A DNA stretch of 64,000 nt from Rhodospirillaceae bacterium (GTDB lineage Bacteria > Pseudomonadota > Gammaproteobacteria > Burkholderiales > SG8-41), in contig JBLNBW010000044.1 in NCBI GenBank assembly GCA_050260255.1, positions 16,741-80,740 on the forward strand. The letters run 5' to 3'. Position 1 is the first letter of the stretch. Each line of letters starts with the position of its first letter. The notes beneath the pieces are model-generated. The model worked only from the letters and a program-made list of their open reading frames with translations. It ran no database searches and was not told the origin of the DNA. The translations under genes and the position numbers were made by a program. Below are positions 33,779 to 53,325 of the stretch, in pieces.

Positions 33779-34444
33779 ATGACGCCACAAGCCGATGTGG
33801 AACGTGCGCGCTTCAACATGGTCGAGCAGCAAATCCGACCCTGGGAAGTGCTCGATCAGCAGATTCTCGATCTTCTCTTCAGCGTGCATCGCGAAGACTA
33901 CGTGCCGGCGCCGTACCGCGCGCTCGCCTTCGCGGACATGGAGATACCGCTGGGGCATGGTGAAAAGATGCTCGCCCCCAAGATCGAAGCCCGCATCCTG
34001 CAGGAGCTGCGCATCAAGCCGACCGACCGCGTGCTCGAAGTAGGCACCGGCAGCGGCTACATGACCGCCCTGCTCGCGAGCCTCGCCTCGCACGTGTACA
34101 GCGTGGATATCGTCCCGGAGTTCACCGAAGCGGCGGCCTCGAAGCTGCGTGCGCATGGCATACACAACGTGACCGTCGAGACCGGGGACGCCGCGCGCGG
34201 CTGGGACAAGCACGGTCCGTATGACGTCATCGTCGTCACCGGCTCGCTGCCCGTTCTGCCGCTCGGTTTTCAGAACAGCCTCCAGCCCGGCGGCCGGCTG
34301 TTCGCCGTCGTGGGCGAGCCCCCCATCATGGAAGCGCGGCTCGTCACTTGCATCTCGCGCGGGGTTTATAACTCGATGGCTGTGTTCGAGACGTGCATAC
34401 CTCCGCTGCGCAACGCCGTACAACCCGAACGGTTCGTTTTTTGA
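33779..34444 (+). CDS. protein-L-isoaspartate O-methyltransferase family protein
   Basis: ORF trimmed to MTPQADVERARFNMVEQQIRPW. SAM motif VLEVGTGSGYMTALLA. Confidence 0.8.
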   Translation: MTPQADVERARFNMVEQQIRPWEVLDQQILDLLFSVHREDYVPAPYRALAFADMEIPLGHGEKMLAPKIEARILQELRIKPTDRVLEVGTGSGYMTALLASLASHVYSVDIVPEFTEAAASKLRAHGIHNVTVETGDAARGWDKHGPYDVIVVTGSLPVLPLGFQNSLQPGGRLFAVVGEPPIMEARLVTCISRGVYNSMAVFETCIPPLRNAVQPERFVF

Positions 34445-35781
34445 CGCCCGCCCGCCTGAAGCTTGCGGTCGCAGCAGCGCTCGCAGCGTCGCTGCATGCC
34501 CACGCCGCGGACTTGCTGGATGTTTTCCGCCAGGCGCAAACCGCCGATGCAGTCTATGCCAGCGCGCGCGCCCAATGGGCCGCCGCGCAAGAGCGGATCC
34601 CGCAGGGCCGCGCCGGCCTGCTGCCTCAGGCCAGCATCTCGGCCAATACCTTGTACAACGATCGTTCGGTGACGTTTCGGGTTCCGGGGATACCGGGCAG
34701 CAGCACGCAATTCAATTCCAACGCCATCACGCTCACGGTCACGCAGCCGATCTTCCGGCGGCAGAACATGATCGCGTACGATCAATCGCGCACGCAGGTC
34801 GACCAGGCGGAAGCTCAGTTTGCGCTAGCCGCTCAGGACCTCATACTGAGAGTCGCGCAAGGCTATTTCGACGTGCTGCTCGCTCAGGACAACGTCGCGC
34901 TGTCGCAAGCACAGAAGGCCGCGATCGGCCAGCAGCTCGAACAGGCCAAGCGCAACTTCGAAGTCGGCACGGCGACCATCACGGACACGCACGAGGCGCA
35001 GGCGCGCTACGACCTCACGGTGTCGCAGGAGATCGCCACCCAGAACGACCTTGAGCTGAGGCGCCGCAGCTTAGAGCAGATCATCAATCAGTCCGCTCCG
35101 CCGCTCGCGCCGCTCAGCACGCGCCTCGCGCTGAAGGCGCCCGAGCCCGCCACGATGGACACGTGGGTGGATGAAGCGCGCCGCACGAATCTGCAGGTGC
35201 GCGCCGCCGAAGCGGGACTGCGGTTCGCCAGCCAGAACATCGAGCGCAACCGCAGCGGGCACTATCCGACGCTCGATGCGATTGCGAGCTATCAGGATCA
35301 AGCCCAGGGCGCCGGCATCTCCGGCGTGCAAAGTCCCGGCTTCGATGCCAGGGTGCGCGCCATCGGTCTGCAGGTGACGATACCGCTCTACCAGGGCGGG
35401 CTCGTCAACTCCCAAGTACGTGAAGCGATAGCCAACGAGGATCGCGCGCGGCAGGATCTGGAGAACGCGCGGCGCACCGCCGAGTTCAATGTCCGGCAAT
35501 CGTACCTCGGCGTCACCAGCGGTCTTGCCCAAGTGCAGGCCTTGCAGGCGGCGCTCGTGTCGAGCGAGAGCCAGCTCGAATCGACGCGCCTCGGTCAGCA
35601 GGTAGGGGTGCGCACGCAGGTGGACGTGCTCAATGCGCAGCAACAGCTCTATACCGCACGCCGCGACCTCGCGCAGGCGCGCTACAACTACGTGATGTCC
35701 CTGTTAAGGCTCAAGGCGGCCATCGGTCAGCTGACCGAAGACGATCTCGTGGATATCAACCGCTGGCTGGGCGCCTCGTAG
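34441..35781 (+). CDS. tolC: TolC-family outer membrane channel
   Basis: The TTG at 34441 gives MTPARLKLAVAAALAASLHAHA (signal peptide). Two repeated coiled-coil/beta-barrel halves. Ends ...INRWLGAS. TTGA overlap with the upstream stop. Confidence 0.85.
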   Translation: MTPARLKLAVAAALAASLHAHAADLLDVFRQAQTADAVYASARAQWAAAQERIPQGRAGLLPQASISANTLYNDRSVTFRVPGIPGSSTQFNSNAITLTVTQPIFRRQNMIAYDQSRTQVDQAEAQFALAAQDLILRVAQGYFDVLLAQDNVALSQAQKAAIGQQLEQAKRNFEVGTATITDTHEAQARYDLTVSQEIATQNDLELRRRSLEQIINQSAPPLAPLSTRLALKAPEPATMDTWVDEARRTNLQVRAAEAGLRFASQNIERNRSGHYPTLDAIASYQDQAQGAGISGVQSPGFDARVRAIGLQVTIPLYQGGLVNSQVREAIANEDRARQDLENARRTAEFNVRQSYLGVTSGLAQVQALQAALVSSESQLESTRLGQQVGVRTQVDVLNAQQQLYTARRDLAQARYNYVMSLLRLKAAIGQLTEDDLVDINRWLGAS

Positions 35782-35785
35782 CGCA

Positions 35786-37030
35786 TCAAAAGCGTACGAG
35801 CTCGAGCACGCGCTGCACCGCGCCCTGGTGTGCCCGGCAAAACGCCACGCCTGCTTCCCCCATCCGCCGCGCCCTGTTCCGATCGGTAAGCAGCTCACTC
35901 GCCTTATGCGCGAGATCCTCGACATCGGCGACCGATAACGCAGCCCCGCTTTCGACCGCGAGCTCGGCCGCTTCGGCGAAGTTATACCTGCTGGGGCCGA
36001 TCAACACCGGCTTGCCGACCGCGCAGGGCTCGATGAGGTTCTGGCTGCCGTACGGGAGCAGGCTGCCGCCGATGAAGGCGACATCGCACGCGGCGTAATA
36101 CGCGAACATTTCTCCGAGACTATCGCCGAGCAGCACTTCCGTATCGGGACGCACGGCAGCGTTCGCGCTGCGCCGCTGAAAGGCAAACCCGCGACGCTGC
36201 AATATGCCGGCGACTTCCTCGAAACGGTCCGGATGGCGCGGGACGATTACGAGCAACAGGTGCGCAACAGCCATGCGCTCCAGCGCGTCAAGCAACAGCT
36301 CTTCCTCGCCGTCGCGCGTGCTCGCCGCGAGCAGCACCGGACGCACGCCATAGTTTTCGCGCCACTGCACGCCCTGTTGCACGAGCGCGGGTGGCGGGAC
36401 GATATCGAACTTGAGGTTCCCCGAGATGCGCGGCGCGGATGCGCCCAACGCTGCGAGGCGCTTCGCGTCCGCTTCGGTTTGGGCTGCGATGCCGGCCAAA
36501 CCTCGCAGCGCCTCGGCCACGAGACCGGCGTGACGACGATAACCCGCGTACGATTTCTCCGACAGCCTCGCGTTGATGAGATATACCGGCACGTGCGCCG
36601 ATGCTGCTGCATGGATGAGATTCGGCCACAGCTCTGTCTCCATCAGCAGGCCTGCCGCGGGCTTGAAGTGCCGAAGAAAGCGGCGGACCGCGCCCGGATA
36701 GTCGTACGGCAGATAACATCGGTCTACGTTGGCACCGAACAAGAGCTGGCTCGTTTCGCGCCCCGTCGGGGTCATATGCGTAATGAGCAGGCGGTGCTGC
36801 GGATAGCGCTCGCGCAGCGCACGCACCAAGGGCTCCGCAGCCCTGGTCTCGCCCACGGATACGGCATGTATCCAGAGGTACGGCTGCGCGCTGCGCACGC
36901 CGCCGTAGAATCCGAACCGCTCCGGAACGTGGCTCAAGTACTCGCGCTGGCGACGCGCGCGCCACAACAAGCGCAACGGAACGAGCGGCAGCAACAGATA
37001 CAGCAACGCCGTATAAAGGGCGCGTCTCAT
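35786..37030 (-). CDS. waaA: 3-deoxy-D-manno-octulosonic acid (Kdo) transferase
   Basis: MRRALYTALLYLLLPLVPLRLLWRARRQ...ERFGFY...WIHAVSVGE. Confidence 0.9.
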   Translation of the reverse strand: MRRALYTALLYLLLPLVPLRLLWRARRQREYLSHVPERFGFYGGVRSAQPYLWIHAVSVGETRAAEPLVRALRERYPQHRLLITHMTPTGRETSQLLFGANVDRCYLPYDYPGAVRRFLRHFKPAAGLLMETELWPNLIHAAASAHVPVYLINARLSEKSYAGYRRHAGLVAEALRGLAGIAAQTEADAKRLAALGASAPRISGNLKFDIVPPPALVQQGVQWRENYGVRPVLLAASTRDGEEELLLDALERMAVAHLLLVIVPRHPDRFEEVAGILQRRGFAFQRRSANAAVRPDTEVLLGDSLGEMFAYYAACDVAFIGGSLLPYGSQNLIEPCAVGKPVLIGPSRYNFAEAAELAVESGAALSVADVEDLAHKASELLTDRNRARRMGEAGVAFCRAHQGAVQRVLELVRF

Positions 37031-37980
37031 GCCGAGCTCAGCACGTCACTGACCGCTTGCATCACTTCGCCGGTCGAAGGCGGGCGTCGCTTGCCGCCGA
37101 GATTGACGCCGCGCGGGCAGCCGTACAATCCGGTCGCGGCGGGATCGGTCGCGACGTACAGCGCGACCGTGGGCACGCCGAACGCGCCGGCGAGATGGGT
37201 GAGCCCGGTGTCGAGGCCGATTACCAGCGCCGCTCCGGCGAGCAGCTGCGCAGCCGCGTCGAGAGACAACCGCTCGGGCACGGCTGCGTTCGTCATCGCC
37301 GAAGCAAGACGCTCGCTGCGCGCTCGCTCCGTGGTGTTACCCCATGGCAGCACGATCCGCATACCATTAGCCACCAGCCGCTGCGCGACCGTTACCCAAT
37401 CGTCTTCGCGCCACAGCTTCGCCCGCGCGCTGGTGGAATGCAGCAACACGGCGTAGGGCGAGCCCGTCCGCACAGCGCAGCCATGCGATTCGACGCCGTA
37501 ATCAATCATGGATGATCGTCGGTACCCCAAGGCCTGCGCCACCAGCTCGCGGTTGCGCTCCACGGCGTGCAGCGTCCACGGCACGCGGAACGTCCGGTCG
37601 TACAGCCATCCCAGCGGCTCGCGTGCGCTATGCCAGTCGAGACCGTAACGCGGTCCGTGGGCCGCTCGGGCGACGAGCGCGCTTTTCATCAGTCCCTGCG
37701 TGTCGATGATGGCGTCGTAGTGATTGGCCCGAAGCCGTGCGATCGCCATGTGAATGTCGGCACGCGTTTCGGCGCGCCACCACCCCGTGCGCCACCGGCG
37801 GACGTTGACCGGAATGACGGTCCGCACGCCCGGATGCAAGCGCGGTATCGCGTCGTAGCTCTGCTCGACGAGCCAATCGATCGCCGCACCGGGTACGTTG
37901 CGTCGGATGTCGGAGATGACCGGAAGATTGTGGACGACGTCCCCGAGCGAAGACGTCTTCACGAGCAGTATGGAAATCAT
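37027..37980 (-). CDS. waaC: LPS heptosyltransferase I
   Basis: ILLVKTSSLGDVVHNLPVISDI, a GT9 family signature. ATGA overlap with waaA. Confidence 0.85.
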   Translation of the reverse strand: MISILLVKTSSLGDVVHNLPVISDIRRNVPGAAIDWLVEQSYDAIPRLHPGVRTVIPVNVRRWRTGWWRAETRADIHMAIARLRANHYDAIIDTQGLMKSALVARAAHGPRYGLDWHSAREPLGWLYDRTFRVPWTLHAVERNRELVAQALGYRRSSMIDYGVESHGCAVRTGSPYAVLLHSTSARAKLWREDDWVTVAQRLVANGMRIVLPWGNTTERARSERLASAMTNAAVPERLSLDAAAQLLAGAALVIGLDTGLTHLAGAFGVPTVALYVATDPAATGLYGCPRGVNLGGKRRPPSTGEVMQAVSDVLSSA

Positions 37981-38035
37981 GCGGTCATGTCGTCATCGCG
38001 CGGCGCGGCAGCCGCGATTGTAACCGCGCCGGCAT

Positions 38036-38062
38036 AAAAAAAGGCCGCCCGGAGGCGGCCTT
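38036..38062 (-). terminator. rho-independent terminator after the protease/FG-GAP gene
   Basis: Minus strand reads AAGGCCGCC-TCCG-GGCGGCCTT followed by TTTTTAT. 9-bp perfect stem, 23 nt after the stop at 38085. Confidence 0.8.
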
Positions 38063-38084
38063 CGCAAGTCGCGTTGCGTTGCGC

Positions 38085-39887
38085 TTACGACACGACCCAG
38101 TCGCTGCCCACCGTGCCGATGGTCGCGGAAGCGATGGTGTGGAGCTGATCCATGAGCTCGATCTTCTGCGCGCCGCTCGTGTCCTGCCACAGCAAATCGG
38201 AGCGGTGATCGTTGTTGAAGTCGCCCACGCCGGCGAGCTTCCATCCGGGCTGCGTTCCGGTGATGCTGCCCCAGCCGCCGACCGCGTGTTCGCCGTCCAT
38301 CAACCAGATGCTCACCGCGCCGCCGTCCTGCTGCCACACAATGTCGCTGTGATGGTCGCCGTTGAAATCGCCGATGCCGGCGACATGCCAGTCGAGAGGT
38401 GCGCTCGCCATCGCGCCGCCGCCGCCGTGCGACGTGCCGTCCATCAGCCACATCGCGACGGTGCCATTGTCGTTGCGCCAGAGCACGTCGGCTTTCGAGT
38501 CGCCGTTGAAGTCGCCTGTGCCGGCAACCTTCCAGTCTGCCGACATGCTGCCGGCCGTGCCGCCGCCGGTGATGCTGTGGTCGCTCATCTGCCAGGTGCT
38601 TACCGTGCCGTCGTCGCCGCGCCACAGCACGTCGGCTTTCGAGTCGCCGTTGAAGTCGCCCACGCCTTCGATGTGCTGGCTGGTCGGCGCGCTCGATACC
38701 ATGCCGCTGTCGATCGCAGAGGCGCCGTTCATGGTCCAGAGCGCCACACCGCCGTTGTTGTTGTGCCACAGGATGTCGCCCCGGCCGTCGCCATTGAAGT
38801 CGCCGTTGCCTGCGACCGACCAGTCGTTGCCCGCGCCCAGATTGGTGCCGCTCGTGCCAACCACCGAGGTGCCGCTCAGGCTGTGGATCTGCAGTGCGCC
38901 GGTGTTGACGTTACGCAGGAGCATGTCCGCGTTGCCGTCGCCGTTGTAGTCCACGAGGGTGGCCGCGAGGTCGGCGGCGAGCGCGTGCTGCGATCCGCTC
39001 GCCGGCTGCGTCGTCGTGGTCGTCGACGTCGATGCATCGTAAGTCGGCGTGGTGGTCGTCGTAGGCGTAGCCGACGTATCCGTTGTGGTCGTGGACGTCG
39101 TGTCCTGCGTCGGAGTCGTATGAGTGTCGGTCGTCGTGGTCGTCGTCGTGCTCGTCGATGTGCTCGTCGATGTGCTCGCGCTGGGCGCCGGCGTGCTGCT
39201 CTGGCTGCCGCTGATCATGTAATCGTTGCCATTGATCCAGTTGACGAGATCGTTGTAGACGCCTTTCACCGAGGCGCCCCAGCCCGACGTCGAAACCACG
39301 CCCGCTACGTGCCCCTGGCCGTCAGCGCCCTGGTACCACACCGGGCCGCCCGAATTGCCCGGGTTCAGCTGTATGCCGGAGTAGTTGATGATCGATTCGC
39401 CGCTCTGCGACGCAGAGGTGTAGTCGTTCACCATCTGCCAGCCGTACGCAGCCGGGAAGCCCGTGACGTTGACGTTGCCGCTCGTGAAGTTGGGATCGAG
39501 CTGCATCCAGCCCGTCTGGTTGCCCACCGCAGTACCGAGATCCACGAGCGCGATGTCGTGTTCCGAGCCGGTCAGCGTGGCAAGACCATCGTTGCCGCCC
39601 GGCATCAGCATGTGGCTGTTGTTCGGGTCGAAGTCCGTGTAGTAGTGGAACGAAGTGGACGTGTACTGACCGTAGGGCGCCTGTCCCCAGTTCGCGGGCG
39701 TGACGGTCACGCTCGTTGCAGCGCCGCCTTGATCGGGCATGTACAGCGCGTGGCTCGCCGTGAGCACGTCGTTGGGTCCAACCATGACGCCCGTGCCGCC
39801 GTACGATGCGCCCGACGGGAAGTTGATCTGGATGAAGACGATGGACCGCCAGAGTTCGGCAGTGGGATCTGATACTGCAACTGACAT
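38085..39887 (-). CDS. S1-family (chymotrypsin-fold, V8/Trypsin_2-like) serine protease fused to a Thr/Ser linker and six FG-GAP/VCBS Ca-loop repeats; no signal peptide; candidate T1SS cargo
   Basis: 600 aa. Catalytic triad in canonical order: TASH46AL, EHD111IALV, GNS179GGPV. Linker at residues 227-298. Six repeats carry DYNGDGNADMLL / GDFNGDGRGDILW / GDFNGDSKADVLW (twice) / GDFNGDHHSDIVW / GDFNNDHRSDLLW. Ends GSDWVVS. AGGGG SD 6 nt upstream of the ATG. Confidence 0.85.
   Translation of the reverse strand: MSVAVSDPTAELWRSIVFIQINFPSGASYGGTGVMVGPNDVLTASHALYMPDQGGAATSVTVTPANWGQAPYGQYTSTSFHYYTDFDPNNSHMLMPGGNDGLATLTGSEHDIALVDLGTAVGNQTGWMQLDPNFTSGNVNVTGFPAAYGWQMVNDYTSASQSGESIINYSGIQLNPGNSGGPVWYQGADGQGHVAGVVSTSGWGASVKGVYNDLVNWINGNDYMISGSQSSTPAPSASTSTSTSTSTTTTTTTDTHTTPTQDTTSTTTTDTSATPTTTTTPTYDASTSTTTTTQPASGSQHALAADLAATLVDYNGDGNADMLLRNVNTGALQIHSLSGTSVVGTSGTNLGAGNDWSVAGNGDFNGDGRGDILWHNNNGGVALWTMNGASAIDSGMVSSAPTSQHIEGVGDFNGDSKADVLWRGDDGTVSTWQMSDHSITGGGTAGSMSADWKVAGTGDFNGDSKADVLWRNDNGTVAMWLMDGTSHGGGGAMASAPLDWHVAGIGDFNGDHHSDIVWQQDGGAVSIWLMDGEHAVGGWGSITGTQPGWKLAGVGDFNNDHRSDLLWQDTSGAQKIELMDQLHTIASATIGTVGSDWVVS
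38088..38990 (-). repeat. intragenic tandem array of six ~144-nt (48-codon) FG-GAP-type units
   Basis: The periodicity is visible in the protein. Two units share a 42-nt block with 1 mismatch (38475-38516 vs 38619-38660, 35 nt identical). Confidence 0.7.
38994..39209 (-). repeat. low-complexity Thr/Ser/Pro linker coding region
   Basis: Encodes SQSSTPAPSASTSTSTSTSTTTTTTTDTHTTPTQDTTSTTTTDTSATPTTTTTPTYDASTSTTTTTQPAS. Includes the tandem 12-mer gtgctcgtcgat, about 2.6 copies, at 39148-39178. Confidence 0.7.
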
Positions 39888-40052
39888 AGCTACCCCTACT
39901 TTGTTTGATGTGCATTACGGCGCGTCCGGATCACCGGCATGCCGCCATTACTGATGAATGGAGCCGACAACGCGGCTGACAAAGCTGCTTCATCTTCTGT
40001 TCATGTCTTATCCTTTCTTTTCTCGTCGGTGCTGAGCCGCTGGCGCGGTTTG

Positions 40053-40751
40053 TCACGACGTTTTATGCGCAACGCATGTAGCGGATTCGGTGTCCCGGCC
40101 ATCGGCTGCTGAGCGGCGTGGCCCACGGCGATGCGGTGCGCTTGGGCTCCTCGAGAGCCGCGCAGCTAAAAGCAAGATGCATGCAACAGCGAGGATTGCC
40201 GCAACGAAAACGATGGTGATTAGCAATGCGCCATCGTCATGGACGCGGCATTCTTCCCTATGTACATCGCGGTGCTCAGTGCATTTGTCACGCTGCGATT
40301 CGATTGCATTGGATCGTCGGCGAGTCGCATGTTCGGCGGCGATTTTTGTCGGGCCGCCCCGACGCCTCGACGGCCGATTTCGCGCGAATGCACAGCGCGT
40401 GCCGCGAGCGTAATCGGGATGCTTTCCCTCTCATGACGAATGATCTTTAGCGATCATTTCAAGCGCGGCCCGTTGTCGCAGGACAGCGACGGCAGCATTG
40501 CACATCCCGCCAAGCGCGCCGCAGTGACATGCGAAACGCTTCGGTGCAATGGCATGAATATGCGCATATGCCCATACAGTGTCATGATTTCCCTCTTGAA
40601 TCGCGCTTCGCTCGACATGCCGGACGCATGGCACGCGAGGAAGAGCGAGTGCAATGTCATCGATATGGGTGTCTGTGATGCCCGACAGTGCAGGTGTTAC
40701 ATGCCACGTCGCCGATCGTGTGGGCGCTGCGTTCGGCGGACCAGCAGCCAT
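40053..40751 (-). pseudogene. possible interrupted gene: a 233-codon frame open except for one in-frame TGA (40431-40433); alternatively two small ORFs (106 aa and a 57-aa TM peptide)
   Basis: The track ORF 40431..40751 (MAAGPPNA...AKDHSS) continues in the same frame after the TGA. The continuation runs through HREECRVH and a clear TM helix LLITIVFVAAILAVACILLLA to the stop at 40053. GC3 is much lower than in neighbouring genes, there is no SD, and I recognise no family. Confidence 0.25.
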
Positions 40752-40815
40752 GACGCACGCATGTGCGGCTCACACAGCAGGTGAACAATTGAGCAAGAGC
40801 GCGCGCGAGACTGCT

Positions 40816-40839
40816 GCGCGCAGCGCATTGGCTGCGCGC
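40816..40839 (-). other. 9-bp perfect GC hairpin 36 nt downstream of the hlyD-family gene stop
   Basis: GCGCGCAGC-GCATTG-GCTGCGCGC, with no U-tract. Possible attenuator, processing site or rho-dependent pause site. Confidence 0.3.
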
Positions 40840-40874
40840 CAGCGTTCCGCGGGTTACGGCGAGTGCCGCGCGAG

Positions 40875-42206
40875 TTATTTCTCGCGCATCGCCTTGTTGA
40901 TCGACTCGGTGAGCGGTCTTAGCAGGTAGTCCAGCACCGTGCGCTCGCCCGTCGGTATGACGAGCATTGCCGGCATGCCGGGGAACAGCTTTACGTTGCT
41001 CTGCGCGGCCAGCTCGTCGGCTGGAATCTTTGCCTGCACCGCGTAGTAGCTCTGCCCGCTGCGGCTGTCGGTGAGGCGATCCGCCGACACCTGCGTGATG
41101 TGCGCTCGCATACTGGGAGTACTTCGCTGGGTATACGCAGTGAGGCGTACCTGCGCGTCCATGTCCGGATGCACGCCGTCGATGTCTTCGACGTTGACGG
41201 TTGCTTCGACCGCAAGCGCCTGGGTGTCCGGTACGATATCCATGATCTTCTCGCCACGCCCTATCACGCCGCCCACGCTGAAGACGGTCATCCCGACGAC
41301 GTAGCCGGAATACGGCGCGCGGATCTCGGTACGTGCCAGCGTGTCCTCGGCGACCTTGAGCTTGGGGCCTAGCTCAGCGAGCTTCGCCTGCACTTCGCGC
41401 AGATCACCGGCGACCTGTGCGGCACGATCAGCCTGCAGCTGCTGGATTTGCAGCGTCGCCTCGTTGATCACCTGGTTGGCCTTTGCGACATTCGCCTTGA
41501 CTTCGCCGACCTGCCCTTCGAGCTCGGCGGCGGAGCGCTCGAGCTCGAGCATGCGCTGACGCGGCACATAGCCTTTCTTGAACAGGTCGCGCAGCCCCGT
41601 CACCTCGCCGCGCGTGGATTCAAGCTGCTGCTGACGCGACACGAGGACCGCCCTGGAGCCTGTGATCTGCTCGCGCGTCTGCGCCACTTTCTGCTTGAGC
41701 AGCGATACCTGACCGGCGAGCGCCGTCTGCCGGCTTACGAACAGGTTCTCCTGTGCGCGCAGCAGTGTATCGACATCCGAATCGCTGCGGCGTGCGAGAA
41801 GCTCGTCGGGAAACGACACCGCCGCCGCGCCGTCCCTCTCGGCGAGCAGCCGCGCTTCCTGCGCGCGCAGATCGTCGTGCTGCTTGCGCAGCACACCGAC
41901 CGCGCCCAGCGCCTGCGTATTGTCGAGAACGATGAGCGTCTGGCCGGTTTCGACCTTGTCGCCCTCCTTCACGCGCAGCTCCTTCACGATGCCGCCGTCG
42001 AGATGCTGCACGCTCTTACGGTTGCCTTCGACCTTGACCACCGCGGGTGCGATGACCGCGCTGCTCACCGGGGCGACGGCGGACCAGATGCCGAGCGCCA
42101 GGACGAAAGCGCCGACTATGGCAAGACCGGTGAGTATCGGACGCCGCGCGTCGTCTTCGACTTGCGGAGCGGCCTCGCTCACGTATGAACTCAGAGTATT
42201 GGACAT
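40875..42206 (-). CDS. HlyD-family type I secretion periplasmic adaptor (membrane fusion protein)
   Basis: 443 aa. A single N-terminal TM (ILTGLAIVGAFVLALGIWSAV), a long coiled-coil, and a C-terminal beta-barrel ending VLDYLLRPL. Confidence 0.9.
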   Translation of the reverse strand: MSNTLSSYVSEAAPQVEDDARRPILTGLAIVGAFVLALGIWSAVAPVSSAVIAPAVVKVEGNRKSVQHLDGGIVKELRVKEGDKVETGQTLIVLDNTQALGAVGVLRKQHDDLRAQEARLLAERDGAAAVSFPDELLARRSDSDVDTLLRAQENLFVSRQTALAGQVSLLKQKVAQTREQITGSRAVLVSRQQQLESTRGEVTGLRDLFKKGYVPRQRMLELERSAAELEGQVGEVKANVAKANQVINEATLQIQQLQADRAAQVAGDLREVQAKLAELGPKLKVAEDTLARTEIRAPYSGYVVGMTVFSVGGVIGRGEKIMDIVPDTQALAVEATVNVEDIDGVHPDMDAQVRLTAYTQRSTPSMRAHITQVSADRLTDSRSGQSYYAVQAKIPADELAAQSNVKLFPGMPAMLVIPTGERTVLDYLLRPLTESINKAMREK

Positions 42207-42225
42207 GTTTATTCGATGCTTGTGG

Positions 42226-43935
42226 TTATGCGTGGCCCGCGACCGCGGTACGCGTCGGCGGTGCAGACAATCGGGCCATGATCTCCTGGCGGGGGCCGAA
42301 GCCCTTCACGACGCCGCCATCGAGGAACAGGAGTTTGTCCACCGCGTTGAGCGCCGCCATGCGGTGCGAAATGACCACGACGGTGGTGCCCATGTTCTTC
42401 AGGCGCGAGAGGCACTCGAGCAATGCCGCCTCGCCGTTGCTGTCCAGGTTCGAATTGGGCTCGTCGAGAACAACGAAGCGCGGCGCGCCGTACACGGCGC
42501 GCGCAAGCGCGATCTGCTGGCGCTGACCGGCGGAAAGCAGCATGCCCTGGTCGCCCACCTCGGTCTCGTAGCCGTTCGGTAATCGCAGAATCATCTCGTG
42601 CGCGCCGGCAAGGTTCGATGCACGAACGACCTCTTCCGGCACCAGCGAGCCGAAACGTGCAATGTTATCGGCAACGGTGCCGGGGAACAGTTCCACGTCC
42701 TGCGGGAGATAACCGACGTGCCGGCCGAACGCATTGCGATCCCAGGTCCAGACGTTCGCGCCGTCCAGACGCACGACACCGGCCGTAGGCGGACATACAC
42801 CCACCAGCAACCGCGCAAGCGTCGACTTACCCGCCGCGCTCGGGCCCACCAGGCCGAGCGCTTCGCCGGGCGTGAGCGCGAAGCTGACTTTGTTGATCAC
42901 CATGCGGGTAGTGCCGGGCGGCACGAACACCACCTCCTCCACCGAGATGTGTCCAGTCGGTTCCGCCGGCGAGATGGTCGGACGGCGCGGCGGACGCGTG
43001 GCGAGCAGCGCGGACACGTTGTAGAGGGATTGCTTGGCTGCAATCAGTTGACGCCATAATCCCACGACTTGCTCTATCGGCTGCATCGCCCGCCCGAGCA
43101 ATATGCTGGCCGCGAACATCGCGCCCGGTGTGATGGTGCGATCGATCGCGAGATAAGCCCCCACACCGAGGACCAGCGCCTGCGCCGAGAAGCGCACGAA
43201 GCGTATGCCGCTCAGCACCGTCGATCCTTGATCGACCGCCGCCGTCTGCGCCTGCAGCATGCGGTTCCTATCCTTGCGCCAGCGATCGAGCAGACCGTCC
43301 ATCATGCCGCTTGCATGGATGATCTCCGCGTTTTTGAGGCTCGATTCGGCAAAGGCATAGCTGCGCGCGGCGGCATGCGTCGATTCCGCGAGCGGCTTGC
43401 GGCTCACATACTCGTTGAGCACCGCCAGTCCGAGCAGTATGCCCGCGCACAAGACCGCTGCGCCGCCGATCGCAGGATGGATGATGAACAGCACGCCGAG
43501 GAAGAGCAGCGCCCACGGCATGTCGAGCAACGCAACAAGACCCGGACCGGCGATCAGCGAGCGGAAAGAATCAAGCTCGCGCAGCGGCTGGGTCCGCTGC
43601 AGCATCGGTACGATCAGCGACTGCTCCACCGATGCGGAAATCACGCGACGCGCGAGCAGCGCGTCGAGTCGCATGCCGCTTCGATTCAGCACGCGGGCGC
43701 GAACGCTTTCCAGGCCGGCGAGCGCGGCGATGGCAAATACGAATGCGATGCTCAGCATCACGAGTGTTGCCATGTTCCCGCTCGCAAGCACCCGGTCGTA
43801 CACCTGCGAGGTGTAGATCGGCAGCGCGAGATACAGAAGATTGGTCGCCATGCTAAACAGCACGGCAGCAATGAAGTGCGTGCGGCAAGCACGTAATGCG
43901 GTGACGATTTCGTCCGGTAATTTTCTTAACTGCAT
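42226..43935 (-). CDS. type I secretion ABC transporter (PrtD/AprD class: TMD+NBD, no C39 or C39-like N-domain)
   Basis: 569 aa. The first ~300 aa form six TM segments. Walker A GPSAAGKST, signature LSAGQRQ, Walker B VVLDEP. Confidence 0.9.
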   Translation of the reverse strand: MQLRKLPDEIVTALRACRTHFIAAVLFSMATNLLYLALPIYTSQVYDRVLASGNMATLVMLSIAFVFAIAALAGLESVRARVLNRSGMRLDALLARRVISASVEQSLIVPMLQRTQPLRELDSFRSLIAGPGLVALLDMPWALLFLGVLFIIHPAIGGAAVLCAGILLGLAVLNEYVSRKPLAESTHAAARSYAFAESSLKNAEIIHASGMMDGLLDRWRKDRNRMLQAQTAAVDQGSTVLSGIRFVRFSAQALVLGVGAYLAIDRTITPGAMFAASILLGRAMQPIEQVVGLWRQLIAAKQSLYNVSALLATRPPRRPTISPAEPTGHISVEEVVFVPPGTTRMVINKVSFALTPGEALGLVGPSAAGKSTLARLLVGVCPPTAGVVRLDGANVWTWDRNAFGRHVGYLPQDVELFPGTVADNIARFGSLVPEEVVRASNLAGAHEMILRLPNGYETEVGDQGMLLSAGQRQQIALARAVYGAPRFVVLDEPNSNLDSNGEAALLECLSRLKNMGTTVVVISHRMAALNAVDKLLFLDGGVVKGFGPRQEIMARLSAPPTRTAVAGHA

Positions 43936-44030
43936 GCTGCTCCCTGTAACCTACGGGAAAGGTCGACAACGTGGTATGTGGCGCGCGGCGAGCCGCGATG
44001 AGATTTGAAGGGCGCGCCGGAAAGGCGCTT

Positions 44031-44059
44031 TTTATAGCACGCACGTCATAGCGTCCCAA
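44031..44059 (-). promoter_or_regulatory. sigma70 promoter candidate for the T1SS operon
   Basis: Minus strand reads TTGGGA-N17-TATAAA with an extended TG (TGCTATAAA). About 95 nt upstream of the ABC gene ATG. Confidence 0.4.
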
Positions 44060-44182
44060 GCAAAAATAACTATGGCGTGCACGTTTTACCCGAGCGTCGC
44101 CATCGTGCGACAGCCGTACGATAAGCGCTTCACGCGCGGCCTCGCATTCGAGTAATTCTTGCATGGGGCCCGTGGGGGTCGA

Positions 44183-44191
44183 TGCTATAAT
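44183..44191 (+). promoter_or_regulatory. extended -10 promoter candidate for the plus-strand glycan operon
   Basis: TGCTATAAT, a perfect TATAAT with a TGn extension, about 160 nt upstream of rfbA. No good -35 element. Confidence 0.45.
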
Positions 44192-44352
44192 CCGCCCCGG
44201 TTTCATAGGCTGGCGCGATGACGTTTTCGCTGCGGCCGACCGAGCAGCGCGCGCCCCGTGGCACGACACTTCGCCAGAGGCCGGCATATGAACTACACCT
44301 CAACCCGCTCTCACGAGCATCTGCGCCGCACGCTATCGTCATCGGGGACACA

Positions 44353-51771: not shown

Positions 51772-52572
51772 ATGAGCGTGTTTAGGCAGCGGCTCGTGGC
51801 CGCCATTCGCGACGTTCGCGACGGCATAGCGAGTATCTACGTGTGGCCGATGCTCGGATGGCTGGAGATCAAGCAGCGCTACCGCCGCTCGACGCTCGGG
51901 CCCTTTTGGCTCACTCTGAGCACGGCCGTCGTGATCCTGGGAATGGGTCCCCTTTACGGCAGGCTGTTCAACCAGGACTTGTCTGCGTACTTTCCGTTTC
52001 TCGCGGTTAGCATCGTCCTGTGGTCGCTCATGAGCACGCTGATTACCGACTCGTGCACTGCATTCATCTCGGCCGAGGGGTACATCAAGGACCTCAAGCT
52101 GCCGTACACCGTGCATGTGCTGCGTATCGTCTGGCGCAATCTCATCATGTTTGCGCACAACCTCATAGCGGTCCTCGTCGTACTGGCAATTTTCCGTCCC
52201 CATTGGGGTCCGAGCCTCGTGCTCGTTCCCGTCGGTGTGCTGCTCATCGCGATAAACGGCGTGTGGTTCGGCATTCTGCTCGGGCTCCTGTGCACGCGTT
52301 TTCGTGACATACCGCAGGTGGTTGCGAGCCTGCTGCAGCTTGCGTTCTTTCTCACGCCCATCTTGTGGAGACCGACGATGCTCGGAAAATACCAGTGGGC
52401 GCTCGACCTCAATCCGCTCTACGTCTTCATGGAAATCGTGCGCGCTCCGTTGCTCGGCGAGGAAACCCGCGTGAAGCTCTGGCTGCTTGCATTGCTCATC
52501 ACGGGAATAGGCTGGGTCATCTCCATGCTATTGTTTGCTCGCTTCCGCACCCGCATCGCATACTGGTTGTAA
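51772..52572 (+). CDS. wzm: ABC-2 type polysaccharide export permease
   Basis: 266 aa, six TM segments. N-terminal LEIKQRYRRSTLGPFW motif. Confidence 0.85.
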   Translation: MSVFRQRLVAAIRDVRDGIASIYVWPMLGWLEIKQRYRRSTLGPFWLTLSTAVVILGMGPLYGRLFNQDLSAYFPFLAVSIVLWSLMSTLITDSCTAFISAEGYIKDLKLPYTVHVLRIVWRNLIMFAHNLIAVLVVLAIFRPHWGPSLVLVPVGVLLIAINGVWFGILLGLLCTRFRDIPQVVASLLQLAFFLTPILWRPTMLGKYQWALDLNPLYVFMEIVRAPLLGEETRVKLWLLALLITGIGWVISMLLFARFRTRIAYWL

Positions 52573-52575
52573 CAG

Positions 52576-53325
52576 ATGGCGCATATCAAAGCCGAGGATG
52601 TCACGGTCGAGTTCCCCATTTACGACGGGGTAAAGAGCCGCTCTCTCAAGAAGCGCTTCATCCATGCAGCGACCGGCGGCCTGGTCGCGCGTGATGTAAG
52701 CGAGCGGGTGGTGATCCGTGCGCTCGACAAGGTGAGCTTCGAATTGAAGGATGGCGATCGCCTCGGACTGGTCGGACACAACGGCTCGGGCAAATCGACG
52801 TTGCTCCGCACTATAGCGGGCGCGTACGAGCCGGTCGGCGGAACGATGCAGGTGACCGGGCGCATCGCCTCGATGCTCAGCATCACCCTCGGGATGGATC
52901 CGGAGGCGACCGGCTACGAGAACATCTTTCTGCGGGCGACGGTGATGGGCTTCAAGCCCCGGGAGATCGCGCCGCTCGTTGATCAGATCGCCGAATTCTC
53001 GGATCTCGGTGAGTACATCAACATGCCGCTGCGCACTTACTCGAGCGGCATGTCGATGCGCCTGGCCTTCGCAATATCGACCAGCGTCGATGCGGATATC
53101 GTTTTAATGGACGAATGGCTGAGCGCTGGAGATGCGGCTTTCGCCGAAAAAGCCCACCAGCGCCTGACTCGCATGATCAGCAAAGCGAAAATTCTCGTCC
53201 TCGCGTCTCATGATGAAAACTTGTTGCGCAATAACTGCAGCCGGATCATGCGTCTGGAGCACGGTCGCATAGCGCACCTGCAGAATATAGAGACGAACGG
53301 GACCGGCGCTGTGGCGACAGCGTAG
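52576..53325 (+). CDS. wzt: polysaccharide export ABC ATPase (NBD only, no C-terminal carbohydrate-binding domain)
   Basis: Walker A GHNGSGKST, signature YSSGMSMRL, Walker B IVLMDE. 249 aa. Confidence 0.9.
   Translation: MAHIKAEDVTVEFPIYDGVKSRSLKKRFIHAATGGLVARDVSERVVIRALDKVSFELKDGDRLGLVGHNGSGKSTLLRTIAGAYEPVGGTMQVTGRIASMLSITLGMDPEATGYENIFLRATVMGFKPREIAPLVDQIAEFSDLGEYINMPLRTYSSGMSMRLAFAISTSVDADIVLMDEWLSAGDAAFAEKAHQRLTRMISKAKILVLASHDENLLRNNCSRIMRLEHGRIAHLQNIETNGTGAVATA

Follow-up and report, generated by a model that had tools for sequence, protein, structure and literature searches.

A PrtD-class type I secretion locus whose probable cargo is a leaderless serine protease joined to an FG-GAP propeller

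Introduction

Can a protease that carries no RTX (repeats-in-toxin) block be the dedicated cargo of a T1SS (type I secretion system), and might another calcium-binding fold do the work of the missing repeats? The question is raised by a 64-kb stretch of contig JBLNBW010000044.1, the whole of which is referred to here as the window. Genes for an ABC exporter and an adaptor of T1SS type lie there on the minus strand, together with a gene for a 600-residue protein in which an S1 serine protease is joined to an FG-GAP propeller; this protein is called the cargo protein below. Work on T1SS has drawn on a handful of cargo types, with the RTX beta-roll accepted as the calcium ratchet. An earlier interpretation of the locus, made without database searches (the sequence-only reading), had proposed that the protein is a T1SS cargo of a non-RTX type whose FG-GAP loops may replace RTX repeats as a folding ratchet. 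The three minus-strand open reading frames (ORFs) on which that proposal was founded were all recovered at the same coordinates, and their translations hold each motif quoted for them.

Results

Exporter, adaptor and outer-membrane channel

The ABC exporter matched TIGR01842 (type_I_sec_PrtD) with 657 bits (cutoff 510), its residues 14-556 covering model positions 1-544, and the Pfam domains ABC_membrane and ABC_tran were located at residues 22-280 and 348-494. The motifs GPSAAGKST, LSAGQRQ and VVLDEP are all present in the translation. As the TIGR01842 match runs from end to end, there is no room for an N-terminal C39 or C39-like domain (CLD); the HlyB and LssB models aligned only from their positions 134 and 142, and the transmembrane domain (TMD) begins at residue ~22. 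The earlier assignment of this protein to the PrtD/AprD class without a C39-type N-domain is thus borne out, as is that of the HlyD-type adaptor, which matched TIGR01843 (type_I_hlyD) with 382 bits (cutoff 209) and whose gene is 19 bp from the ABC gene. Judged by these profiles, the two genes encode a PrtD-class T1SS. A TolC-family protein encoded 2.3 kb beyond the cargo gene matched TIGR01844 with 342 bits (cutoff 225) and Pfam OEP at E=2e-61. Its gene does not share an operon with the others and is convergent with waaA, and its synteny is kept in three homologous loci (L006, L008 and L012; homologous loci are numbered with L and homologous proteins with P). The gene had been recognized in the sequence-only reading with a start at 34441, which is a plausible alternative to the start used here (Table 1).

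A leaderless cargo protein

An AGGGG Shine-Dalgarno sequence stands ahead of the ATG of the cargo gene and the frame is open for only nine codons upstream, so that a hidden signal peptide is impossible and a corrected start exposing one is excluded. The N-terminus (MSVAVSDPTAELWRS...) is acidic, lies within the first strand of the protease fold and reaches a maximum 12-residue hydropathy of ~1.3. Inspection of the sequence and of hydropathy revealed no Sec, Tat or lipoprotein signal at this end; the absence of a Sec/Tat-like N-terminus had been claimed before.

Linkage of exporter and cargo genes

Orthologues of the ABC exporter with at least 64% identity were found only in uncultured Burkholderiales-type metagenome-assembled genomes (MAGs) and metagenomes, the next PrtD homologues having at most 56% identity. 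A gene of the protease family lies beside the genes for the ABC exporter and the membrane-fusion protein (MFP, the adaptor) in all orthologous loci with enough flank, namely L012, L006, L044 and L045, and beside the MFP gene only in L008; this adjacency spans cargo identities of 42-93%. Two further loci, L043 and L046, end too near the T1SS genes to reveal any cargo gene. The sequence-only reading would have failed had homologues of the ABC/MFP pair never been linked to S1/FG-GAP proteins; the opposite was found, with linkage in every informative locus.

The closest of these loci, L012 (on a 427-kb contig), is fully syntenic with the window, in the order rmlA, ABC, MFP, a gap of ~1 kb, cargo, waaC, waaA, tolC, thiC; its ABC and MFP proteins are each 91% identical to those of the window and its cargo, which lacks RTX repeats, is 80% identical. 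L008 likewise encodes an RTX-less cargo (67%) and an MFP (81%), its ABC gene having been replaced or cut by an insertion sequence (IS) element. L006 (ABC 66%, MFP 64%) shares the thiC-tolC-waaA-waaC neighbourhood, with the cargo in divergent orientation; this cargo, P0020, is 42% identical and bears three RTX repeats. In L045 (ABC 68%) the order is ABC, MFP, a gap of 260 bp and a short RTX-less cargo of 385 amino acids, which has two FG-GAP loops and ends in DWIAA; tctC, not waaC, follows the cargo gene. The same order and short form, here cut by the contig end, occur in L044 (ABC 67%). A more distant case is L024, where a 230-residue protease-only homologue ending in NDYLLV adjoins a divergent PrtD-like ABC gene. 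A scan of genome contigs with the cargo protein returned three FG-GAP-only relatives (L001-L003), none with an S1 domain; the neighbouring ABC genes, at 28% identity, are uninformative.

From the leaderless start, the conserved adjacency and the RTX-bearing homologues described below, the S1/FG-GAP protein is very probably the cargo of the adjacent ABC/MFP pair, and the proposal that it is a T1SS cargo is well supported on these comparative grounds. For the locus as a whole, the sequence evidence makes the interpretation as a T1SS plus cargo likely.

Two side observations were made on these loci. In L008, the IS element (L008:238-1241, with a helix-turn-helix (HTH) domain and a DDE_3 transposase) occupies the expected ABC position, and the adaptor and cargo genes are intact. 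In one metagenome sample, a T1SS-linked cargo without RTX (L012, Ga0255338_1000076) occurs together with an unlinked RTX-bearing homologue, P0014 (L013, Ga0255338_1000122). The neighbours of the latter are PAS/HisKA kinase genes and a multihaem cytochrome gene, and GC content is 0.667 in L012 and 0.649 in L013.

RTX repeats in the cargo family

No PF00353 match was found in the cargo protein, and none of the window's ORFs of 100 codons or more, the cargo ORF included, has a GGxGxD motif, which agrees with the earlier statement that the cargo has no RTX nonapeptide. Between the protease and the propeller, residues 226-299 are ~75% Ser, Thr or Pro and are predicted to be disordered (pLDDT <30). 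A search of 5.8 billion proteins returned two sets of full-length homologues. The close relatives P0001-P0008 (58-93% identity) have the architecture of the window cargo. P0009-P0021 (42-57% identity) share the protease and the six-loop propeller with it, and carry two to five RTX nonapeptides and a post-RTX segment of ~60 residues at the position of the Thr/Ser linker; in the alignment of the family, columns ~340-430 are filled by RTX repeats for P0009-P0021, and there the members of the window clade show a gap or low-complexity sequence. PF00353 scored 31-43 bits (cutoff 23) in P0009, P0014 and P0020, and 40, 178 and 107 bits in the propeller-less relatives of L016, L020 and L023. A PDB search with a profile of the family alignment picked up RTX blocks from CyaA, T1SS lipases and AlgE epimerases.

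In a neighbour-joining (NJ) tree of the protease domain, with S1-RTX proteins without propeller as outgroups, all RTX-less FG-GAP proteins, including the short forms with two and three loops, fell into one clade (72% bootstrap). The group that encloses this clade has 81-87% support, and its other FG-GAP-bearing members have RTX repeats, those of P0021 being a degenerate, unscored stretch only. The simplest history that the sequences suggest leads from S1-RTX to S1-RTX-FG-GAP, followed by a single loss of RTX. Since the RTX-less clade is nested among RTX-bearing proteins, the window cargo is a derived RTX-less member of an RTX serine-protease family, with a low-complexity linker in place of the repeats. 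The earlier view of a non-RTX cargo architecture as a type standing by itself is not borne out by these homologues and their branching.

The FG-GAP propeller and its last strand

The cargo protein matched FG-GAP_3 with 89 bits (cutoff 27) and FG-GAP with 81 bits (cutoff 22). Its six DxNxDxxxD loops lie at residues 313, 363, 411, 459, 507 and 556, a spacing of 48-50 residues, and so conform to the six FG-GAP-type repeats described previously. In an AlphaFold2 (AF2) model of the full-length protein, pLDDT was 85-97 in the propeller and 75-88 in the protease; the propeller modelled alone from 61 sequences gave a pLDDT of 93.7 and a pTM of 0.91. DSSP assigned six four-strand units to the latter model, the first without strand A. 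A closed six-bladed propeller with putative calcium loops is therefore predicted, which supplies the blade count that the sequence-only reading had left to structure prediction.

The chain ends ...SDWVVS, and its final strand (WVV) shares the register of strand A, the "DWxVAG" strand that precedes each calcium loop; the last strand was predicted at residues 596-598 of the full-length model and 298-300 of the propeller model. A G[ST]DW[VIM]V[SA] C-terminus is kept across the cargo family. By the models, GSDWVVS is probably the velcro strand that closes blade 1 (1+3 closure). The sequence-only reading had seen in this end an acidic residue followed by a hydrophobic tail, as in substrates of PrtD-class exporters. 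The description holds; the interpretation as a PrtD-type signal does not gain from it, because the strand coincides with the repeat strand DWxVAG and its conservation therefore cannot count as evidence of such a signal. No NCBIfam T1SS C-terminal target domain was matched in the cargo.

At the sequence level, the propeller had no PDB match at E<=0.01. Foldseek with the whole cargo found UmbA4 as the best PDB match (9oee_A, E=3.9e-15) and matched the Umb1 particle too. With the propeller alone, the best match was the UmbA4 propeller lectin (TM-score on the query (TMq) 0.73, E=5e-12, 21% identity), followed by chains of the KICSTOR complex with lower TMq and then by PVL and PAL (TMq 0.61-0.64), which are integrin-like fungal lectins specific for N-acetylglucosamine (GlcNAc). 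The best structural relatives of the propeller being lectins, a glycan-binding role is pointed to, and on the models the propeller is probably a module of lectin type by which the protease is targeted or anchored to a glycan.

The serine protease domain and its family

When residues 1-227 were scanned alone, Trypsin_2 was matched with 44.1 bits (cutoff 27.6, E=4e-11) and Trypsin with 26.0 bits (cutoff 20.6, E=1e-5); a Pfam scan of the full-length cargo returned neither at E<0.01. Of what had been expected from such a scan, FG-GAP at the C-terminus and the absence of HemolysinCabind were found as foreseen, and Trypsin_2 at the N-terminus only with the domain isolated. H46, D111 and S179, earlier read as an S1 triad in canonical order, are invariant in 14 homologues of 51-89% identity. 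A protease-family profile run against the PDB had 1p3c as its top match (E=1.6e-8). The Foldseek matches of the protease part were S1B glutamyl endopeptidases (1p3c, V8 (0.71), Esp, Spl and exfoliative toxins) with a TM-score on the target (TMt) of 0.67-0.73, 1p3c scoring 0.73 and 1qy6 0.71. From its sequence, the protease domain is probably catalytically active.

An exhaustive profile search with this domain against 1.84 billion cluster representatives (50% clustering) gave a family of 186 clusters at E<=1e-30, a number that rises to 1,742 at E<=1e-10. Among the best 150 representatives, the catalytic His comes no later than residue 70 in 122, and not one of these 122 has a Sec-like hydrophobic N-terminus; at least two RTX repeats (up to 32) are present in 42 of the 150, and at least three FG-GAP loops in only 3. 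The sequences thus point to a large, apparently undescribed family of leaderless S1 proteases, often RTX-bearing, of which the FG-GAP fusion is, in this sampling, a small branch. The leaderless proteases of the wider family appear, from the same features, to be T1SS cargo.

A loop of low model confidence lies between the catalytic His and Asp (39573-39635, cargo residues ~85-105), roughly where trypsin has its calcium loop. In the window protein its sequence is FDPNNSHMLMPGGNDG; the RTX-bearing homologues have YDPDGDGYLMPGD there, a calcium-loop motif of DxDxDG type. Because of this motif and its position, the protease domain may be calcium-dependent. The protease-only members of the family (~220-260 residues) stop after their terminal helix with ...W[IM]xxND[YGAH]L[LI][VA], an acidic residue and a hydrophobic tail (L024:2111-2803, L025, L018, L021; P0245, P0274, P0369, P0384). 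The same motif is internal in the window protein, as WINGNDYMISG at residues 217-227.

Other proteins with a C-terminal FG-GAP module

The tails of FG-GAP proteins were surveyed by regular expression among the best 120 FG-GAP matches of the 5.8-billion-protein search. In these, the six-loop module is always C-terminal and always finishes in a W-x-[IV] strand, 44-57 residues past the last loop. Proteins with a Sec-like N-terminus have no RTX repeats and tails of the form ...QGxNA[DE], while RTX-bearing ones are leaderless with hydrophobic tails (DWIVS, WKIAAPIL, HHYDFV, QFDYI); RTX is missing from several of the leaderless proteins that end in WKIAAPIL. On this pattern, the FG-GAP propeller would be a module that recurs at the C-terminus of T1SS cargo, upstream RTX repeats being optional. 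The N-terminal domains of P0022-P0120 were very diverse and included M10/serralysin-like, subtilase, kumamolisin, DUF4347 and glycoside hydrolase domains.

Spacer, terminator and surrounding genes

The features of the locus are collected in Table 1. Within the spacer between the adaptor and cargo genes, islands common to L012 and L008 read, on the minus strand, GCGTGACAAATGCACTGAGCACCGCG...TACATAGGGAAGAATG, CGTTGCATGCATCTTGCTTTTAGCTGCGCGGCTC and CAGCCGCGTTGTCGGCTCCAT; the counterpart in L045 is only 260 bp long. Positions 37900-44300 gave no Rfam match, and a promoter scan of the same interval gave one consensus match, the number expected by chance. A sigma-70 promoter read by eye in one conserved island was rejected for its wrong spacing, and a 106-residue ORF in the spacer (40431-40751) was rejected as a gene, having no Pfam match and not being conserved as an ORF. 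The conserved islands may mark a regulatory leader or promoter region of the cargo gene.

Exporter, adaptor and cargo genes sit wedged between genes of the lipopolysaccharide (LPS) core and of the O-antigen, and this waa/rml linkage recurs in L012, L008, L006 and L043. The O-antigen cluster contains rmlA-like nucleotidyltransferases, GT2 glycosyltransferases, epimerases/dehydratases and a methyltransferase, together with an ABC-2 exporter of Wzm/Wzt type (51772-52572 and 52576-53325).

The cargo protein is deposited in NCBI as MGE5522706.1, from a MAG, and annotated only as "FG-GAP-like repeat-containing protein". The host is an uncultured soil-type bacterium. The MAG is labelled Rhodospirillaceae; the label is Burkholderiales for a 248-residue partial sequence in the 90%-identity cluster of the protein and for the closest ABC orthologue. 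These MAGs thus carry conflicting taxonomic labels.

Table 1. Position, strand and basis of the features of the T1SS locus in the window
Feature	Position	Strand	Basis or remark
TolC-family outer-membrane channel	34393..35781	+	TIGR01844 and Pfam OEP; probable third T1SS component
waaA, LPS core	35786-37030		between tolC and the cargo gene
waaC, LPS core	37027-37980		between tolC and the cargo gene
Intrinsic-terminator-like hairpin and T-run after the cargo gene	38040..38063	-	10-bp stem, 7 GC pairs, then TTTTTAT
Cargo protein, 600 residues	38085..39887	-	S1B protease, Thr/Ser linker and FG-GAP propeller
Cargo extreme C-terminus GSDWVVS, last beta-strand; candidate part of T1SS signal	38088..38108	-	repeat register, conservation
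Cargo residues 300-600, six-bladed FG-GAP beta-propeller, lectin-like (predicted)	38088..38990	-	Pfam, AF2, Foldseek
Cargo residues 226-299, Thr/Ser(Pro)-rich linker	38991..39212	-	composition, pLDDT, alignment
Cargo residues 1-225, leaderless S1B (V8/Glu-endopeptidase-like) protease domain	39213..39887	-	Trypsin_2/Trypsin, triad, fold
Spacer between adaptor and cargo genes, 988 bp, non-coding	39888..40874	-	conserved islands; presumed promoter, leader or regulatory region
T1SS membrane-fusion adaptor, HlyD/AprE-type, 443 residues	40875..42206	-	TIGR01843
PrtD-class T1SS ABC exporter (TMD and nucleotide-binding domain), 569 residues	42226..43935	-	TIGR01842, Pfam
Polysaccharide/O-antigen cluster	44218-~57000		GC 0.58-0.61, lower; directly beyond the ABC gene

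Discussion

A dedicated T1SS cargo and how it might be exported

Taken as a whole, the locus is best explained as a PrtD-class T1SS with a dedicated protease-propeller cargo, an explanation that we regard as quite likely to be right. On this explanation, the exporter and adaptor would use the TolC protein encoded nearby. From the general working of T1SS, the cargo would be held unfolded in the low-calcium cytoplasm, recognized through its uncleaved C-terminal region and threaded C-terminus first through the ABC-MFP-TolC conduit. Folding would take place outside the cell, where millimolar Ca2+ could fill the six DxNxDxxxD loops and the DWVV strand would complete blade 1. As the cargo would leave C-terminus first and the velcro strand stands at its end, the propeller could not close until all ~300 of its residues had emerged. 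In the course of evolution, the cargo clade has lost its RTX block, gained the low-complexity linker and kept its linkage to the T1SS, and the propeller, as a lectin-type module, probably aims or anchors the protease at a glycan, a role suggested by the similarity of fold.

Several findings weigh against this explanation. Eight family loci have no T1SS in the available flanks (L004/L013, L007, L009, L010, L016, L018, L020 and L023), which makes the linkage, as far as these sequences go, a property of one lineage and not of the whole family; unlinked cargo genes are common among T1SS. The adaptor and cargo genes are separated by 988 bp and the cargo gene has its own terminator, so that co-transcription is only putative. 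Only the register of the repeats and DSSP underlie the velcro assignment, and the conserved C-terminal motif, being explained by structure, is no independent evidence of a signal. Finally, the tree has only moderate support (72%) at the node that matters most for the loss of RTX.

What the propeller contributes

The explanation that competes most seriously accepts the protein as a T1SS cargo and takes the propeller to be purely a lectin or targeting domain, competence for export being provided by slow folding of the entire chain, by some loop of the protease that depends on calcium or by a cytoplasmic chaperone. There is a real chance that this is correct, although we lean away from it. The top structural matches of the propeller are carbohydrate-binding (UmbA4 0.73; PVL and PAL 0.61-0.64), and family members without a propeller, either protease only or protease plus RTX, are common, one of them lying beside a PrtD-like ABC gene. 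An anti-folding chaperone has a precedent in HasA/SecB (PMC3034196), and the T1SS-linked short variants carry just two FG-GAP loops. On the other hand, RTX has been lost only in the clade that retains calcium loops of FG-GAP type (two, three or six), and among proteins with C-terminal FG-GAP modules hydrophobic tails track leaderless N-termini, several of these proteins having no RTX. Calcium-loop propellers should, moreover, not fold at cytoplasmic Ca2+ levels, which counts against a propeller that is irrelevant to translocation.

The sequence-only reading went furthest in proposing the FG-GAP loops as a folding ratchet that replaces RTX. This hypothesis is plausible and agrees with the data. 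A glycan-targeting function is no less likely, and it is the lectin role that the structural models support better. In its most general form, the proposal would make the six-bladed FG-GAP propeller a widespread, so far unrecognised export-and-folding module of T1SS, with calcium loops by which it stays unfolded in the cytoplasm, with a velcro strand that doubles as part of the signal and with calcium-driven closure that drives or locks translocation without RTX, which for that reason could be lost, the propeller being a lectin besides. We find this generalization doubtful.

The preferred explanation of the locus, a PrtD-class T1SS with a dedicated cargo, also admits a variant in which the exported propeller binds the LPS or O-antigen of the producer itself, so that the protease stays on display at the cell surface and is not released. 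The genes for exporter, adaptor and cargo do lie between waaC/waaA and the O-antigen cluster with its Wzm/Wzt-type exporter, the waa/rml linkage is kept in four other loci (L012, L008, L006 and L043) and the modelled propeller fold is lectin-like; RsaA, an S-layer protein secreted by a T1SS and anchored to O-antigen, offers an analogy for such display. The synteny may, however, be mere vertical inheritance of one insertion site, and in L045 tctC takes the place of waaC past the cargo gene. We consider this variant unlikely.

Is the adjacency itself meaningful?

It is also conceivable that the adjacency is coincidental and that the ABC/MFP pair exports proteins encoded elsewhere, for example RTX-bearing paralogues. 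PrsDE-like T1SS do export many dispersed substrates (PMC9298526), one sample holds a linked RTX-less copy (L012) together with an unlinked RTX-bearing paralogue (L013), and the gap of 988 bp and the separate terminator suggest that the cargo gene is transcribed independently. Yet the adjacency persists in all informative orthologous loci despite changes in orientation and neighbours, and the cargo has no alternative export signal and has RTX-bearing homologues, so that a coincidence seems very improbable. Least credible of all is that the protein is an UmbA-like adaptor, in which the trypsin fold would bind a partner peptide and the propeller lectin would direct a multi-protein toxin particle: UmbA4 is the top whole-protein PDB match (E=3.9e-15), the Umb1 particle is matched, and the order of trypsin-like domain, linker and six-bladed calcium-type propeller lectin is shared, but the triad of UmbA is incomplete and inactive (PMC11062931) whereas H, D and S are invariant here, family profiles detect no sequence-level similarity to UmbA, the neighbourhood consists of LPS and T1SS genes, among which no partner resembling UmbB or UmbC was seen, and Umb systems are described in Streptomyces while the cargo is linked to a Gram-negative T1SS.

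Comparison with known systems

The nearest parallel is the serralysin T1SS (PrtDEF/AprDEF with PrtB, PrtG or AprA), which likewise consists of a PrtD-class ABC protein without C39/CLD, an adaptor and TolC. Its cargo, too, is a leaderless protease with an uncleaved C-terminal region, encoded beside the exporter, and relatives of the window cargo are RTX-bearing as serralysins are (PMC3034196). The window differs in that the catalytic domain is an S1B serine and not an M10 metalloprotease, in that the cargo itself lacks RTX and in that there is no inh gene; the RTX-bearing homologues of the cargo differ further in having an FG-GAP propeller of ~300 residues between the RTX position and the C-terminus. 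A 2010 review of RTX proteins is silent on FG-GAP and on RTX proteases of trypsin fold (PMC3034196).

A second parallel is found in Rhizobium leguminosarum, where RapA2, RapD and PlyA/PlyB, substrates of PrsDE, are non-RTX cargo of a PrtD-class T1SS (PMC9298526). The cadherin-like (Ra/CHDL) lectin domains of the Rap and Ply proteins fold only with millimolar Ca2+ and bind polysaccharide, and in the Ply enzymes, much as proposed for the window cargo, a catalytic part is followed by a lectin domain at the C-terminus (PMC9298526). The predicted calcium-dependent domain of the window protein is an FG-GAP beta-propeller instead of a cadherin-like sandwich, the enzyme is a protease instead of a glycanase, and the gene is adjacent to the exporter and not dispersed. 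By this analogy, a non-RTX T1SS cargo that folds with calcium is not new in principle. The sequence-only reading had known of no described example of the cargo architecture. For the architecture itself this stands, as no description was found in the literature on FG-GAP with T1SS or RTX and on RTX serine proteases; for the principle it does not, given the Rap/Ply precedent (PMC9298526).

The best structural match, both of the whole cargo and of its propeller alone, is UmbA, from the umbrella toxin of Streptomyces. UmbA has the same domain order, an incomplete triad and no activity, and acts as a peptide-binding adaptor with UmbB and UmbC (PMC11062931; PMC13274773). The window protein differs from it in its invariant triad, its want of partner genes and of sequence-level similarity, and its linkage to a Gram-negative T1SS. 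Membership of the UmbA group was rejected for the intact triad, the missing partner genes and the absence of sequence homology; as far as the models go, the resemblance is one of architecture.

The closest relatives of the catalytic domain by profile and fold are the S1B glutamyl endopeptidases, among them V8, Esp, GluBI of Bacillus intermedius, Spl and the exfoliative toxins. These are Gram-positive proteases exported by the Sec pathway with a signal peptide and a propeptide, whereas the protease of the window is leaderless and has a C-terminal propeller.

What the locus means for the family

The loci form a natural comparison, in which exporters of 64-66% identity are linked to the same type of cargo with RTX (L006) and without it (the window, L012, L008 and L045). 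The question of whether RTX is needed when another calcium-dependent beta-structure sits C-terminally is thereby made testable. The analysis has, besides, brought to light a large family of leaderless S1 serine proteases that is as yet uncharacterised. For the protein in the window, the modelled relationship to the UmbA lectin fold suggests glycan-targeted proteolysis, which may be of relevance to interbacterial or surface biology.

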